IMG/VR virus record: IMGVR_UViG_2606217106_000010
Coordinates: 1-14,981 of that record
DNA length: 14,981 nucleotides
Source: a virus
Taxonomy: Duplodnaviria; Heunggongvirae; Uroviricota; Caudoviricetes
Reading direction: 5' to 3' (one strand)
Within the stretch, counting starts at the first letter, position 1. Each line of letters begins with the position of its first letter. The notes under the pieces are model-generated. The model made no database searches. It saw only the letters and a program-made list of their open reading frames with translations, and was not told the DNA's origin. The position numbers and the translations under genes were made by a program. Shown here in pieces: positions 5,983 to 11,457 of the stretch.

Positions 5983-7053
5983 TTATTTGATTTCAATTTT
6001 GTCCCACTCCCTGCCTCTGTCATCACGATACTGTGATGCCATGGTGTCCGACTTATGCCCGAGAAGATGTTGAGCAAATTTATCGCTTATCTGCTTCTCA
6101 TAGAGTCTTGCAGACAAACTGCGCAACTCGTGAAAGGTTGGCGGATCCCCTTCGAAGGAGAGACCTGATGCTTTTCGTGCGCGCATAAAATACCTTGATA
6201 CTGTGCCGGATGAAAGCGGTTCACGACGAGTAGATGCAATTATGGTTTCTCCGCCAAGAATCTTTTTGCATTTATCAAGTGTTTCCTTCATTGATATCCC
6301 GAGAGCATCAACATGCAATGTTGTTGGGATGGCAATTTTTACGCCTGTTTTGCTTTGCTCGACATAAAGATATCCATCTACGATATCAGACCACTTCATT
6401 TCGCATAAATCACCAACTCGCTGCCCGGTAACAACAGCCAGTTCCATTGCAAGTCTAAGCCAACATGGTGATGATTCTGCTGCTTGATAAATTTTCAGGT
6501 ATTCGTCAGCCGTAAGTCTTGATCTCCTTACCTCTGATTTTGCAGCGCGAGTGGCTGCGACCGGGTTTGTTGTTATATGGCCTTCAGCCATAGCCTCTCG
6601 GAATGCATCGCTCAGTGTTGATCTGATTAACTTGGCTGATGCCGCCTTTCCCTCGTCTATGTATCCATTGAGCATTGCCGCAATTTCTTTTGTGGTGATG
6701 TCTTCAAGTGGAGCATCAGGCAGACCCCTCCTTATTGCTTTAATTTTGCTCATGTAATTTATGAGTGTCTTCTGCTTGATTCCTCTGCTGGCCAGGATTT
6801 TTTCGTAGCGATCAAGCCATGAATGTAACGTAACGGAATTATCACTGTTGATTCTCGCTGTCAGAGGCTTGTGTTTGTGTCCTGAAAATAACTCAATGTT
6901 GGCCTGTATAGCTTCAGTGATTGCGATTCGCCTGTCTCGGCCTAATCCAAACTCTTTACCCGTCCTTGGGTCCCTGTAGCAGTAATATCCATTGTTTCTT
7001 ATATAAAGGTTAGGGGGTAAATCCCGGCGCTCATGACTTCGCCTTCTTCCCAT
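5983..7053 (-). CDS. int: Phage lambda-type integrase (tyrosine recombinase)
   Basis: 356-aa ORF MGRRRSHERRDLPPNLYIRNNGYYCYRDPRTGKEF...HLLGHKSDTMASQYRDDRGREWDKIEIK, near-identical to lambda Int by recollection. It sits directly against the P-prime arm of attL, as in a lambda lysogen. Confidence 0.96.
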   Translation of the reverse strand: MGRRRSHERRDLPPNLYIRNNGYYCYRDPRTGKEFGLGRDRRIAITEAIQANIELFSGHKHKPLTARINSDNSVTLHSWLDRYEKILASRGIKQKTLINYMSKIKAIRRGLPDAPLEDITTKEIAAMLNGYIDEGKAASAKLIRSTLSDAFREAMAEGHITTNPVAATRAAKSEVRRSRLTADEYLKIYQAAESSPCWLRLAMELAVVTGQRVGDLCEMKWSDIVDGYLYVEQSKTGVKIAIPTTLHVDALGISMKETLDKCKKILGGETIIASTRREPLSSGTVSRYFMRARKASGLSFEGDPPTFHELRSLSARLYEKQISDKFAQHLLGHKSDTMASQYRDDRGREWDKIEIK

Positions 7054-7145
7054 TTCTGATCCTCTTCAAAAGGCTACCTGTTACTGGTCGATTTAAGTCA
7101 ACCTTTACCGCTGATTCGTGGAACAGATATTCTCTTCCATCCTTA
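7031..7145 (-). pseudogene. xis: xis remnant: only the C-terminal ~37 codons of lambda-type excisionase remain
   Basis: The reverse strand encodes ...KDGREYLFHESAVKVDLNRPVTGSLLKRIRNGKKAKS* and overlaps the int start as in lambda. Lambda-like sequence ends near 7145/7146, with no upstream xis start codon or N-terminal coding sequence. Confidence 0.75.
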
Positions 7146-7155
7146 TATAACCAGG

Positions 7156-7336
7156 TGAATCATTTGATACCGACAAGGGTTTTAGTGAAAGGAGGTGAAA
7201 TCACCTGTAAGATACTGAAATAAAACAGGTGATGGCTAGATGTGCGGATAAGGTCTATTTGATACCGATTGTGCAATAATTAGTCATTTATTATAAAATC
7301 GGCAACTCATTTGATACTGTGGTTTTAGTCTTTTAA
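7156..7336 (+). repeat. Putative left end (attL) of a Mu-like transposable prophage with three direct transposase-binding-site-like repeats
   Basis: CATTTGATACCG at 7161-7172, TATTTGATACCG at 7256-7267 and CATTTGATACTG at 7308-7319 are direct repeats; repeats 1 and 3 are each followed by GGTTTTAGT. Spacing of ~95 and ~52 bp resembles Mu L1-L2-L3. A candidate terminal 5'-TG lies at 7156-7157. Confidence 0.55.
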
Positions 7337-7377
7337 GGCGTTCCAAACAATGCGAAATACTCGATATAGTGCAAAAT

Positions 7378-7406
7378 GCGGGCTAATGCTATTAACCCGC
7401 TTTTGG
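7378..7406 (-). terminator. Possible hairpin terminator overlapping the 3' end of the repressor gene
   Basis: GCGGG (7378-7382) and CCCGC (7396-7400) form a 5-bp stem with a 13-nt loop, flanked by a T/A-rich run on either strand. The stem is short. Confidence 0.3.
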
Positions 7407-7937
7407 TTCTACCGCGTTAGATTTGCGACTTCTCTCAGTTTCTTCCAAAATCTCTCTGACGCGTTCGTCAGACATACCTTCAAGCTGTAATGCAGCTATT
7501 CTTTTCCTTCCTTCTAAGCGGATTAGATCTTGATTTTCAGGCTCTAACAACCGAGCTAAGTACTTGGCTCCATTCAGAACCAAATTTTTCGATAGCTGCT
7601 CTAAGTCTTTTTCATCAAGTGCGCTGATAATCGTCATAATTATCTTCTTGCTTTCATCTTGATTTTCCTTGATCTCACAACGATTCACTTGTGATGCATC
7701 ACTGAATCCACATAGCCACTCAACACTTACTCCTTCGATAGACGCAATCTGAAGGGCGACACTTAAGGATGGCTCAGTGCCACGAGACAGATAATTGTTT
7801 AGTGTTGAAAATGAAAGCCCCCAATCTCTTGCTGCAGCTCTGACGCTGCGGGAGCCAATCAGCCTTTTCAGACGCTCAGCAATGCTTTCTTTTCTACCAC
7901 CAGGAAAAGAAAGAGATGTTGTTGTTTGCTTGTTCAT
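7392..7937 (-). CDS. Prophage repressor with Cro/CI-type HTH, in the position and orientation of Mu c
   Basis: 181-aa ORF divergent from ner. The N-terminal region (IAERLKRLIGSRSVRAAARDWGLSFSTLNNYLSRGTEPSLSVALQIASIEGVSVEWL) has the pattern of an XRE/CI-family HTH. There is no obvious S24 peptidase domain. Confidence 0.7.
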   Translation of the reverse strand: MNKQTTTSLSFPGGRKESIAERLKRLIGSRSVRAAARDWGLSFSTLNNYLSRGTEPSLSVALQIASIEGVSVEWLCGFSDASQVNRCEIKENQDESKKIIMTIISALDEKDLEQLSKNLVLNGAKYLARLLEPENQDLIRLEGRKRIAALQLEGMSDERVREILEETERSRKSNAVEPKAG

Positions 7938-8121
7938 TTTCTTTTCTTCCTATCAATTTGAAATTATTAACTTTTAGTGTTGTCAGCAACCATTGATCCA
8001 CAATAGACAAAAGAAAGATGTTTTTTTGCTTTACATGAAGCAGAAGTGGATCAATACTTATATCAAATTTGATAACTAAGTTTAGTTATCAAATTTCGTA
8101 ACTTTTTAGGATAGATGAATC
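7938..8121. promoter_or_regulatory. Divergent promoter/operator region between the repressor and ner
   Basis: AT-rich 184-bp intergenic region containing a 14-bp perfect palindrome TATCAAATTTGATA (8061-8074), a further half-site copy TTATCAAATTT (8086-8096), and a 10-bp inverted repeat ATTGATCCAC (7993-8002) / GTGGATCAAT (8046-8055). Confidence 0.5.
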
Positions 8122-8352
8122 ATGGCGAGAAATGAAGTTAAGCCTGATTGGCATCCTCAAAGAATTTTGGGGGAAGTCAGAGCCAGAGAAGGAAGCATGA
8201 GGGCGCTGGCCCGTAAAGCTGGCGTGGGTCAGAACAATCTGTACAACGCGGTATACCGCCATGTTCCCAAGTATGAGGGGATTATCGCGGAATGCCTGGG
8301 GGTGCCGCCCGAGGAGATTTGGCCCAGCCGCTACATTCGTAAGGTCGCGTAA
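8122..8352 (+). CDS. ner: Ner-like DNA-binding protein (Mu Ner / Nlp family)
   Basis: 76-aa ORF containing the motif EEIWPSRY (cf. Mu Ner ...PEVIWPSRY) and a KPDWHPQRILG N-terminus resembling Mu Ner. It is the first gene of the rightward operon and sits immediately before the transposase gene. Confidence 0.85.
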   Translation: MARNEVKPDWHPQRILGEVRAREGSMRALARKAGVGQNNLYNAVYRHVPKYEGIIAECLGVPPEEIWPSRYIRKVA

Positions 8353-8354
8353 TT

Positions 8355-10442
8355 ATGTTTGCTTCAGTCAAAGAACTGGTTGGATTACCGGGGATGCCGG
8401 GAACGGAGCAAGGCGTTCGCTATTCAATCAGGAAGTATGCAACCAGCGAAACCAGCAGACGCCGCAAGAAAGGCGCTAAAGGTTTTGAATACAGCATTGA
8501 CTGTTTACCTGAAGTGACACAGCAGGCATTACGCGAACGTTATGCCCTGCAACTGATGACGCAAAAAGCCGATGAATCACCGGCTCCGGTGGTGACAAAG
8601 GCCAGACGCTCGTCTGCCGTGGTTGATGCGGTGGAGGCATATCGCGGATCACCACAACTGATGGTCGAACGCCTCAATGCCCTGACTGAAAACCAGCGCC
8701 AGGTGGCAGACGCACGCATTGCGATCGTCAGTGAGGTGCTGAAATTCACGCAACAACCCGGTTTCAGCTGCGCTAAAGCTATCCGGTTCATCGTTGACCG
8801 CCTGTCACACTCGCAACTGGATGAGCGCATTGTGGCAATGGTTGAGATAGCGAACGCCAGAAAGGGAAACAGTCGCGTGTTGAGTGAAATCACGCTGAAA
8901 CGCTGGATTGCGGCCTTTAATAAGGCACAGAACGCTGCTGAACGCCTGCTTTTGCTGGCACCAGGTAAACGCCAGGAAATAAAAGCCGAAGATATTAACT
9001 GGTTGCCCGAATTTCTGGCGCAGTATCGCCAGTCAAACGGCCGACCAATGACCGAGGCTTACGAGGATTTTGTTGCCGAATGGCAGCACCGGCACGCTGA
9101 TGAGCCTTATATGCTCGATATCATGCCGTCTTATGACACCATTCGCCGCGCAATGAAGAAACTGCCGGAAGTGGTGAAACAAAAAGGACGGGTTACCGGC
9201 AGTGAATACCGCCAGCTTGAGGGATTCACGCGCCGCGACTGGTCAAAAATGCCGGTGAATTATGTCTGGATTGGTGACGGTCACGGCATGAAGCTGAAAT
9301 GCGCGCACCCGGTTCACGGGCGGCCATTCGCACCGGAAGTGACCTTTGTTATCGACGGTGGCACGCGCTTTGTGGTGGGCTGGAGCCTTGACCTGGCTGA
9401 AAATGTTTTCGCCGTAGCCGGTGCCATACAGCACGGTATTCGCCATCATGGCAAACCGTTTCTGTATTACTCGGATAATGGCTCCGGGGAAACCGCCGAC
9501 GTCCTGGATAAGGAGATTGTGGGGATACTGCCACGACTGGGGATTAATCACCCGACAGGGATTGCCGGTAATCCGCAGGGACGGGGCATTATCGAACGGC
9601 TTAACCGCACATTACCGATGCGCATAGCCCGTAAATACCGCACCTATTTCGGGAAAGGAGCAGATCGCGAGACGTTACGTAAAACCAACCGCGATTTACG
9701 CTCGGCATTCAGTGCCCTGCAACAGGGCAAACGGCTGAACGCCCGGCAGCAGTCAGCGATGCGTGATTTACCGTCCTGGTCTGAACTGATTGATGCCATT
9801 CGTGACGGTGTTGAGTGGTACAACAACCGGCCGCACGATGAATTACCCATGAAGCCGAACGGTAAACATTACAGCCCGGCGGAGTTCAGAAAAAAACGCC
9901 TGGCGGAAGAGGACACGGAAATTGAATGGCTGTCCGATGTTGAACTGCGGGATATGTTCCGGCCGATGGTGGAGCGCCCTGTAAGACGCTGTGAAATACG
10001 CTGGCTGAATAATATTTACTACGCGCCCGAGCTGCGTGACGAGCATGGCCGTAAGGTACTTATCAGCTATGACATTCATGATGCCGAACGAATTACCGTG
10101 CGCCGCCCGGATGGCAGCGTGATTTGCGAGGCGGTATGGGACGGCAATAAACGCGAAGCCTTCCCTGTCAGCGCGGAATACTACAAACAGCAGCAGCGCC
10201 TTAAAGGCATGCGTAAACGCGCAGAGGAAAAAATCCGTGATGCCGAGGATGAGGTTGTCAACGTGCTGGAGCACAAGCCGCAGGAGCCCTGGCTGGAAAA
10301 CATATACCGCCCTGTGGGTAATACGGTGACCGTTCAGCAACCGGTCGCTGACGATGAACCTGATGAAGAATACGAGCGTAATTTCCAGCGGGGATTGCAA
10401 CTGCTCGAAGCGAAATTAAAAGAAAGTGATCCGCTGGCCTGA
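8355..10442 (+). CDS. MuA-family DDE transposase (transposable-phage transposase A)
   Basis: 695-aa ORF. Its N-terminus resembles the MuA enhancer-binding domain (cf. Mu MELWVSPKECANLPGLPKTSAGV...GVKGGKAIEY versus here ...GLPGMPGTEQGV...GAKGFEYS). The catalytic-core region VWIGDGHGMK...ILGWSLDLAEN parallels Mu WINGDGY...ILGWRCDVSEN. It is followed by a B-like gene. Confidence 0.92.
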   Translation: MFASVKELVGLPGMPGTEQGVRYSIRKYATSETSRRRKKGAKGFEYSIDCLPEVTQQALRERYALQLMTQKADESPAPVVTKARRSSAVVDAVEAYRGSPQLMVERLNALTENQRQVADARIAIVSEVLKFTQQPGFSCAKAIRFIVDRLSHSQLDERIVAMVEIANARKGNSRVLSEITLKRWIAAFNKAQNAAERLLLLAPGKRQEIKAEDINWLPEFLAQYRQSNGRPMTEAYEDFVAEWQHRHADEPYMLDIMPSYDTIRRAMKKLPEVVKQKGRVTGSEYRQLEGFTRRDWSKMPVNYVWIGDGHGMKLKCAHPVHGRPFAPEVTFVIDGGTRFVVGWSLDLAENVFAVAGAIQHGIRHHGKPFLYYSDNGSGETADVLDKEIVGILPRLGINHPTGIAGNPQGRGIIERLNRTLPMRIARKYRTYFGKGADRETLRKTNRDLRSAFSALQQGKRLNARQQSAMRDLPSWSELIDAIRDGVEWYNNRPHDELPMKPNGKHYSPAEFRKKRLAEEDTEIEWLSDVELRDMFRPMVERPVRRCEIRWLNNIYYAPELRDEHGRKVLISYDIHDAERITVRRPDGSVICEAVWDGNKREAFPVSAEYYKQQQRLKGMRKRAEEKIRDAEDEVVNVLEHKPQEPWLENIYRPVGNTVTVQQPVADDEPDEEYERNFQRGLQLLEAKLKESDPLA

Positions 10443-10524
10443 AATAAAAAAATAACCCGAGGGGTGACTCAGGTTATTTGAGGTTTCAGTCTCGGAGAAT
10501 GCTGTCTCAAGCGAGGTGAATAAT

Positions 10525-11457
10525 ATGACCGATATTAACGATGTAATCAAGACCATTGATGAACTTATTGATGGCGGCGTACTGACGCAGTATGCCATCG
10601 CCAGAGAGGCGGGAATTTCCGACGGCACATTATCGGCTTTCCGTAAGGGAAAATATAAAGGCGATAACGCTGCTGTGGCTGCTTCCCTGCGCTCCTGGTA
10701 TGAGAACTGGAATAAACAAAGCGCACTGCCGGAACCGCCGCAGTTTGTGGAAACTCAGACAGTCCAGGAGCTGCGCGCACTGTTTCAGGCGGTTCGCCTG
10801 ATGGGCTGTATTAACGTTATTGTGGGCGTACCGGGTGTGGGTAAAACGGCCACTGCCCGTAATTACTGCCAGGAGCAACCAAACACCTGGATGATCACCC
10901 TGTCACCCGCGCACTCCAGCGTCACGGAGTGTCTGCTGGAGCTGGCCGATGCGCTGGGGATTGATTACACCCGCGCGAACAAAGGGGCATTATCCCGCGC
11001 CATCCGCCGTCGCCTGATGGGAACGCGTGGACTGGTGATTGTGGATGAGGCGGATCATCTTGGTATTGACGGTCTGGAGCAACTCCGGGCAATTCAGGAC
11101 GCCACGGGGATCGGGATGGTGCTTATTGGTAACCCGCGCGGATTGTTTAAAGGTGGACGCCGCGCCTTTGATGATTTATCGCGCCTGTTCAGCCGTCTTG
11201 CCCGTACAAAACAACTTCGCAAGGCCAAAAAGGCGGATGTGCTGGCCATTGCCAGGGCATGGGGTATCAGTGGTGAGGCCGAGCTGGCCGTCATGCAGGC
11301 TATCGCTGAAAAGCCGGGAGCGTTACGCGTTCTGACACATACGCTTAACCAGGCGTGGCTCACCGCCAGCGGTGAAGGCGCGGCGCTGACAGAAAAACAT
11401 ATTAATGCGGCCTTTAAAGAGGTTTATACCAACCCTGAATTACTCTCACAGGTGTGA
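10525..11457 (+). CDS. MuB-family AAA+ ATPase / target DNA activator
   Basis: The provided ORF starts at GTG 10516; the ATG at 10525 with a GAGGTG RBS upstream is the more likely start. Walker A VGVPGVGKT and Walker B LVIVDEADHL are present. Strong resemblance to Mu B (PEPPRFVETQTV..., QKPGALR...). Confidence 0.9.
   Translation: MTDINDVIKTIDELIDGGVLTQYAIAREAGISDGTLSAFRKGKYKGDNAAVAASLRSWYENWNKQSALPEPPQFVETQTVQELRALFQAVRLMGCINVIVGVPGVGKTATARNYCQEQPNTWMITLSPAHSSVTECLLELADALGIDYTRANKGALSRAIRRRLMGTRGLVIVDEADHLGIDGLEQLRAIQDATGIGMVLIGNPRGLFKGGRRAFDDLSRLFSRLARTKQLRKAKKADVLAIARAWGISGEAELAVMQAIAEKPGALRVLTHTLNQAWLTASGEGAALTEKHINAAFKEVYTNPELLSQV

Follow-up and report, generated by a model that had tools for sequence, protein, structure and literature searches.

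In phage Mu, the region between the repressor gene c and ner is the place of the operators, the early promoter Pe and the Ner site, and Ner reportedly binds the Mu dyad. The Mu transposition enhancer consists of two clusters of transposase sites split by an IHF site, about 1 kb from the left end, and between Mu and D108, c, ner and the start of A differ as one block. The role described for Ner is regulation of the early transposase operon (PMC10434027). The Mu enhancer and the repressor operators overlap, and relative to Pe the enhancer is on the side of those operators (PMC3145075). For the Ner family, a view of the complex with DNA is offered by EnrR (PDB 7F9H/7F9I), two monomers of which occupy the AT-rich palindrome ATATC-TATA-GATAT (PMC9023278). 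EnrR is a chromosomal nucleoid-associated regulator of Edwardsiella with loose specificity.

The locus described here has the same gene order and divergent layout as Mu and D108. It lies in a stretch of viral DNA of 14,981 nucleotides, which was analysed as a whole and is referred to as the window, and it is the early control region of a Mu-like transposable prophage in E. coli. We read it as a divergent region in which two independent operator systems, the c sites and a Ner site, would flank one early promoter, and we give this reading a probability of roughly 0.7. It draws on sequences, positions, protein families and the co-travel of a DNA segment with one protein in natural recombinants, from which we infer binding and regulatory outcome. 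The switch is an ordinary one of a known kind, the Mu-type c/Ner switch, whose sites were previously unmapped.

A Mu-like prophage inside a lambdoid prophage

The genes and the left end of the prophage are arranged as follows.

5983-7053, minus strand: lambdoid integrase gene, beside a pectinesterase-like gene
7146-7318, plus strand: attL, left end of the Mu-like prophage; ATTTGATAC(C/T)G occurs three times, at 7162, 7257 and 7309
7392-7937, minus strand: repressor gene c, 181 amino acids, with an XRE-type helix-turn-helix at residues ~31-75
8122-8352, plus strand: ner, 76 amino acids, Pfam HTH_35 (E 1e-21)
8355-10442: transposase gene A
8355-8519, plus strand: codons 1 to ~55 of A, the I-alpha enhancer-binding domain, in one cassette with the Ner operator and ner
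10516-11457: gene B

The xis/int junction of HK022-/434-type phages matches 7050-7145 of the window at 99-100%, and the Mu-like prophage starts at 7146, with its E. coli relatives, which occupy many different chromosomal sites, aligning from 7145-7148 onward. The insertion interrupts the lambdoid xis gene (7054-7145 / 7146) and leaves it with ~30 codons, so that the lambdoid prophage may be unable to excise. The attL segment is 78-91% conserved in all relatives. Its three repeats, which also occur at both ends of Yersinia phage vB_YpM_5, are spaced similarly to L1-L3 of Mu and are presumed to be the corresponding transposase end-binding sites. The terminal dinucleotide of the left end is TA in the window and in two relatives (L001 and L003), and TG, the canonical Mu end, in two others (L002 and L059).

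The identities of c, ner, A and B were taken from Pfam, PHROG and PDB matches, and place the sites of interest in the c-ner intergenic region. The repressor is annotated in RefSeq as an XRE family regulator. It matches phrog_3037, 'transcriptional repressor', at E 4.5e-60, Pfam HTH_3 at E 2e-4, which is below the family cut-off, and, weakly, the TP901-1 CI structure 6TRI; its C-terminal domain is common to other Mu-like c proteins. No significant similarity was found between c and Mu c by direct BLASTP, or between c and 1G4D/1TNS. In the case of phrog_7148, a match was obtained to the C-terminus of c (E 1.2e-4) and also to the N-terminus of A; homology between c and Mu c through this family is not claimed, since the BLASTP comparison of the two proteins was empty. 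Whereas Mu c has a winged helix that it shares with the I-alpha domain of MuA, c of the window has an XRE-type helix-turn-helix instead. Nearly all repressors of the window and its relatives end in K-A-G or K-A-S despite diverse C-terminal domains, endings that recall the regulatory C-terminal tail of Mu c.

The Ner protein of the window matches the Mu Ner structure 1NEQ (E 3.7e-13) and EnrR 7F9H (E 2.9e-11), with 43% identity to Mu Ner. In A, the match to the I-alpha enhancer-binding domain of MuA (1TNS, E 4.8e-7; also PF02316) covers the first 60 residues, so that the transposase, like that of Mu, has an I-alpha domain of the MuA type.

The predicted early promoter and the putative repressor operators

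Approximately 35 related loci with a c-ner control region were compared, drawn from complete E. coli genomes, Yersinia phage vB_YpM_5 and a Mu-like phage inserted in an Stx phage. Also included were 53 IMG/VR loci reached through the transposase, about two dozen of which extend far enough upstream, and contigs with repressor homologues. The elements on the repressor side are the following.

8030-8058, plus strand: predicted early promoter Pe, with -35 TTTACA at 8030-8035, a 17-bp spacer and -10 AATACT at 8053-8058
8036-8053: putative main repressor operator O_R, an 18-bp dyad filling the Pe spacer, consensus TGATCCAC-NN-GTGGATCA
7992-8001, plus strand: putative upstream repressor site O_L, with the core TGATCCAC at 7994-8001

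A reading of the window made from the sequence alone (the sequence-only reading) had suggested promoter prediction as a check on the region, and Pe at 8030-8058 is the sole sigma-70-like match in 7050-8400, which puts the inferred transcription start near 8065. The TTTACA -35 hexamer is found in 9 of 11 aligned loci; upstream of Mu ner, both this hexamer and the 17-bp length of the spacer recur. For the repressor's own promoter, Pc, no location was obtained beyond weak candidates, for instance TTGCTG/AATAAT on the minus strand at 7989-7963, and these are not conserved in L099.

The sequence-only reading also described a 10-bp inverted repeat in this region. The repeat is real, although its left arm, ATTGATCCAC, lies at 7992-8001 rather than at 7993-8002, and its spacer is 44 nt rather than 43; the right arm, GTGGATCAAT, is at 8046-8055 as described. 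In an alignment of the loci on the Pe -35, however, the two arms do not form one unit and instead belong to two separate sites, the right arm being the right half of O_R, in the Pe spacer, and the left arm being O_L, an upstream half-site. In the window, O_R reads TGAAGCAG-AA-GTGGATCA, with the left half matching the consensus at 5 of 8 positions and the right half at 8 of 8. The dyad is perfect in L236, and the left half matches at 7 of 8 positions in L237, L240 and L241. Among 5000 shuffled versions of the 184-bp intergenic region, 163 (3.3%) contained an inverted repeat with arms of 10 nt or more and a gap of up to 60 nt; by itself, the feature is only mildly unusual.

What ties these sites to the repressor is their distribution. 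The sequence GTGGATCAAT is invariant in all 11 loci whose c has the helix-turn-helix DWGLSFSTLNNYL, across at least five Ner types and in E. coli, Klebsiella, Citrobacter, Xenorhabdus and Izhakiella. Upstream, the TGATCCAC core is found 44 bp from GTGGATCA, exactly in the window, L001, L099 and L237, and with one mismatch in L240, L236 and L241; O_L is thus present in seven loci and missing in the four most distant (L242-L245). It is the outer half of O_L that is conserved, and if O_L, like O_R, is taken as an 18-bp site, the two centres are separated by 42 bp, or four helical turns. GATC occurs in both conserved repressor half-sites (7996-7999 and 8049-8052), and Dam methylation could therefore affect repressor binding.

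These conserved elements could alternatively be promoter features, with GTGGATCAAT as an extended -10 and the dyad upstream of ner as a leader, their co-inheritance reflecting sites of recombination. Indeed, the -10 hexamer lies partly within GTGGATCAAT, whose invariance may in part reflect constraint on the promoter, and L002, which has a different c, retains TTGGATCAAT; recombination breakpoints need flanking homology, which a conserved promoter would supply. We consider this explanation quite improbable. A sigma-70 promoter needs neither eight specific spacer bases nor an inverted copy of them at a fixed 44 bp, as in seven loci, nor the perfect 18-bp palindrome of L236, and each of the other c types has inverted repeats of its own at the same place (AAAATACC/GGTATTTT, AGAACAA/TTGTTCT, TCTACATGTAGA, TGTAGA). 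Moreover, the four-half-site pattern nearer to ner, described below, survives unrelated intervening sequence across Ner types.

On the reading that we prefer, with c sites and a Ner site as separate systems, the leftward-transcribed c would give a protein that recognises TGATCCAC half-sites. The main operator lies between the -35 and -10 hexamers of Pe, and a bound repressor would therefore exclude RNA polymerase and silence ner-A-B. The upstream half-consensus site at 7994-8001 would probably act cooperatively, and may control the promoter of c itself. The CI repressors of lambdoid phages and 434 are likewise of XRE type, with a dyad of ~18 bp over the core of the lytic promoter, and here, as there, a second site on the same face could allow cooperativity and autoregulation. 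Unlike those systems, the window has only two recognisable sites, one of them a half-site, and a repressor that lacks an S24 peptidase domain. In place of Cro, a competitor for the same sites, the antagonist is a Ner-family protein with an operator of its own.

Two further features were observed close to c. The segment ACTTTTAGT at 7969-7979 is GGCTTTTAGCC in L001, with complementary differences on the two sides that extend a small dyad located immediately before the c start. In addition, TATCAATTTGAAA (7950-7962), 13 bp upstream of the c start, resembles the palindrome upstream of ner minus one base, and all repressor types have, ahead of c, a related element, TTATC-N2-3-ATTGA, which may belong to the repressor promoter or leader.

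The dyad upstream of ner

A further element of the sequence-only reading was a perfect 14-bp palindrome, TATCAAATTTGATA, immediately upstream of ner, with a half-site repeat 12 bp downstream. Both are present, the palindrome at 8061-8074 and the repeated TATCAAATTT at 8087-8096. Perfection of this length is to be expected by chance about once per 15 kb: a perfect 14-bp palindrome appeared in 63% of dinucleotide-shuffled versions of the whole window (188 of 300) and in 2.5% of shuffled versions of the 184-bp intergenic region (126 of 5000), and the palindrome on its own is, like the 10-nt repeat, only mildly unusual. Perfect 12-bp palindromes also occur at 8248-8259, 7691-7702 and 117-128 (for instance GCGGTATACCGC inside ner), and four such palindromes in 15 kb is approximately the chance number. 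The strongest feature of the region, which the sequence-only reading did not include, is a perfect inverted repeat with 15-nt arms (8065-8079 / 8082-8096) and a gap of 2 nt, matched in none of 5000 shuffles.

Comparison with relatives bears on the palindrome in two ways. Its conservation in related prophages, which had been suggested as a check, holds for the larger site of which it is a part, and fails for its perfection. Position 8068 is T in the window and C in each of the five relatives read base by base (L013, L014, L060, L061 and L001); L002 and L003 read AAACTT at this stretch, and none of the 22 complete E. coli genomes with a match to 8036-8121 matches that stretch at 100%. The palindrome is thus perfect because of a private C-to-T change at 8068, and the eye-catching symmetry is a single-base accident on top of a real, larger site. 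That site is the following.

8060-8101: putative Ner-type operator with four half-sites, ATATC (8060-64), N6, GATAA (8071-75), N10, TTATC (8086-90), N6, CGTAA (8097-8101)

The site is 42 bp long, begins two bases after the predicted -10 of Pe, and has its dyad centre at 8080/8081, 41 nt before the ner ATG. The palindrome corresponds to half-site 1-N6-half-site 2, and its half-site repeat to half-site 3. When loci are aligned on the dyad centre, the arrangement half-site 1-N6-half-site 2-N8/10-half-site 3-N6-half-site 4 is found in every Ner type and in Mu, where the dyad is in register with that of the window. The distance from the dyad centre to the ner ATG is 38-41 nt in all prophages and 55 nt in Mu, and the distance from the -10 to a shared TAACTTT block is 40 nt in both the window and Mu. 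The sites of the individual types, of which N1 is that of the window, read as follows.

Window (N1): ATATC-aaattt-GATAA-ctaagtttag-TTATC-aaattt-CGTAA
N2: TTACC-N6-GATAT-N8-ATATC-N6-GGTAA
N3: TTACC-N6-GATAA-N10-TTATC-N6-GGTAA
N4: TTATC-N6-GATTA-N10-TTATC-N6-GATAA
Mu: TTAGT-N6-GCTAA-N10-TTAGT-N6-GCTAA

The half-site sequences thus differ between Mu and the window. In Mu, in N1 and in N3, a G-N-T-A-A motif lies 6-10 nt from the dyad centre. The half-sites bound by EnrR are oriented like those of ATATC-N6-GATAA in the window and are nearly identical to them in sequence, the spacer being 4 bp in the crystal DNA and 6 bp in the window. The residue at the base-contact position Arg47 of EnrR is N in Ner of the window, T in Mu and D in N2/N4, and changes together with the sequence of the Ner site. 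Two observations count against the assignment of this site to Ner: GATAA/TTATC half-sites are common to most Ner types, and half-site 1 is poorly conserved even with the same Ner, being GTATT in L001 and CTACT in L003. A single change was seen in half-site 2, a T-to-C change at the equivalent of 8073 in L061 (E. coli 23CRST047) that converts GATAA to GACAA; the transposase of this prophage is frameshifted, and the change is consistent with decay after inactivation.

An inverted repeat of this strength at the 5' end of a message might act mainly as an RNA hairpin, affecting stability or translation of ner, rather than as a protein site. A start near 8065 would give a transcript that begins with a 13-bp stem with a predicted energy of -16 kcal/mol (z = -3.4), a value equalled by no fold among 200 shuffled sequences; the dyad lies here in every Ner type, so each could fold. 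Nevertheless, such a role appears quite unlikely, as variants with the same Ner lack compensatory changes, with a C-A mismatch at 8068/8093 in all relatives and A-A at 8077/8084 in L002 and L003. Between Ner types, the 5-bp half-sites are kept at fixed positions while the spacers vary, which is the pattern of protein contact, and half-sites 1 and 4, which lie outside the stem, obey the same architecture.

A protein other than Ner might also be the ligand, the dyad or palindrome serving the transposase as an I-alpha enhancer element or an end-like site. The sequence ATTTGATA, which also forms the core of the attL end repeats, has six copies in the window where 0.56 would be expected, three of them in attL and three in 8061-8094, and the part of A that encodes I-alpha shares a cassette with ner and the dyad. 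Yet two of the three operator copies depend on the private T8068, the relatives reading ACTTGATA, and we therefore reject the likeness to the end repeats as mostly an effect of that base. Phage vB_YpM_5 and L059 have the same end repeats and quite different Ner-proximal sequences, and the N1 and N4 transposases share a putative recognition helix, QGVRYSIRK, and their dyads differ. The Mu enhancer, moreover, is on the repressor-operator side of Pe (PMC3145075). A transposase site at this position is thus decidedly unlikely.

With Ner as the ligand, the four GATAA-like half-sites of 8060-8101 would be recognised as one 42-bp operator. This operator covers the inferred start to about +35 to +37, and Ner would therefore throttle the early operon, as in Mu.

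Natural cassette swaps and candidate enhancer sites

The assignment of the two classes of site to two proteins comes from natural exchanges between prophages. One identical Ner occurs with four c types (window/L001, L002, L003/L110), which are 39-41% identical to c of the window. All loci with this Ner keep TTGATAAC-N8-GTTATCAAATTTCGTAAC, and the DNA around the Pe -35 differs; 8060-8101 stays with the Ner type regardless of the repressor, and is constant for one Ner type across four c types. Among 28 distinct loci, pairs that share Ner and differ in c have 92% identity in the Ner-proximal segment, falling to 67% in the distal one, against ~63% in both segments for unrelated pairs. Position 8065 is the exact start of the homology that the window shares with L003. 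For each of the Ner types N2, N3 and N4, two or more c types are found, and the segregation is as for N1.

The converse exchange is also found. Four loci (L099, L237, L240 and L236) have a c that is 64-69% identical to that of the window, with a near-identical helix-turn-helix DWGLSFSTLNNYL, and an N4-type Ner, while L241, from Xenorhabdus, combines a window-like c DNA-binding domain with yet another Ner type. In all five, the Pe spacer still contains GTGGATCA and the DNA next to ner bears no relation to that of the window, such that GTGGATCA stays with one repressor helix-turn-helix across differing Ner types. Four more distant loci with the same helix-turn-helix, Klebsiella, Citrobacter and Izhakiella among them, keep GTGGATCAAT. 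Neighbouring DNA is inherited with a gene, so linkage alone gives some co-segregation, and the argument rests on the clustering of breakpoints at the start site in several independent exchanges. The proposal of the sequence-only reading that the region holds two operator classes, one for the helix-turn-helix repressor and one for Ner, gains support from segments that follow either the Ner type or the c helix-turn-helix.

The region alone does not show which protein binds which site, and the assignments could in principle be reversed, with c on the large dyad by ner and Ner on TGATCCAC/GTGGATCA. Nothing specific favours this arrangement, which we regard as far-fetched. Four c types whose recognition helices start differently (SF, PV, SY) share an identical dyad and an identical Ner, and at least three Ner types share GTGGATCA with the same repressor helix-turn-helix. 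The dyad is also positionally homologous to the dyad upstream of Mu ner, which we take to be the binding site of Ner.

Searches for further loci gave the following. Among the matches listed for Ner in genome contigs were five distant loci, and the c protein, searched against viral contigs, returned the same two prophages and one distant locus. In viral contigs, TTGATAAC-N8-GTTATCAA gave 39 matches, three of which are known prophages, the rest lying outside the contigs of the Ner search, and TGATCCAC-N40-48-GTGGATCA had c, ner or A nearby in none of the 118 matches listed.

The cassette that includes ner ends inside A. Residues 1-55 of A are 40-53% identical between N1 and either N2 or N3, and residues 56-130 are 93-97% identical. 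A sharp mosaic boundary thus falls at approximately codons 40-55 (window 8355-8520, compared with L059, L074 and L082), and DNA homology to the N2 and N3 phages resumes at 8471-8520. From this boundary it follows that there are two cassettes, one made up of the Ner operator, ner and I-alpha, the other of c and its operators; whereas c, ner and the start of A differ between Mu and D108 as a single block, in the window lineage c and the ner-plus-I-alpha block are exchanged separately.

This arrangement has a consequence for transposition. As c of the window is of XRE type, its TGATCCAC operators cannot, unlike those of Mu, double as I-alpha sites, and with a c DNA-binding domain unrelated to I-alpha, the enhancer must here be something other than the operators. 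Candidate I-alpha sites are four copies of (C)TTTCTTTT(C/G).

7885-7894, plus strand: first candidate I-alpha site
7904-7913, minus strand: second candidate I-alpha site
7937-7946, plus strand: third candidate I-alpha site
8008-8017, minus strand: fourth candidate I-alpha site

Four of the five matches to this motif in the window cluster at 7885-8017, against 1.14 expected in the whole window. The copies lie 740-870 bp from the left end, and the sites of the Mu repressor and MuA I-alpha have a CTTTT core that resembles the core of TTTCTTTT. The motif is found again in every repressor type, and the 7-mer that recurs most among 10 diverged types is AAAAGAA/TTCTTTT, at a level that any 7-mer reached in 1 of 300 shuffles; the flanks of the TTTCTTTT repeat differ between transposase I-alpha lineages. 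A search by eye for the IHF consensus WATCAANNNNTTR found none between the operator elements. Two of the copies form an inverted pair within the first 20 codons of c, over conserved FSF and KES codons. Together, these features point weakly to the TTTCTTTT repeats as a transposition enhancer with I-alpha binding sites. A fuller scheme, possible but doubtful, is that an XRE domain was swapped in for an I-alpha-like one, that the enhancer consists of TTTCTTTT repeats interleaved with the operators, and that two cassettes meet at the Pe start. If this were true, the repressor could block transposition only by occupying neighbouring DNA, without competing directly for the same sites.

The more interesting leads from this locus are its cassette structure and the separation of the enhancer from the operators, and they raise a tractable question, namely where the enhancer is located once the repressor no longer shares the DNA-binding domain of the transposase. 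The maps given here offer concrete, testable operator positions for a group of Mu-like prophages that is widespread in E. coli and other Enterobacterales and so far uncharacterised, some of its members being inserted in Shiga-toxin phages. The locus also illustrates how natural cassette swaps allow DNA sites to be assigned to regulators without experiments, and the site assignments predict which prophages should be mutually immune.
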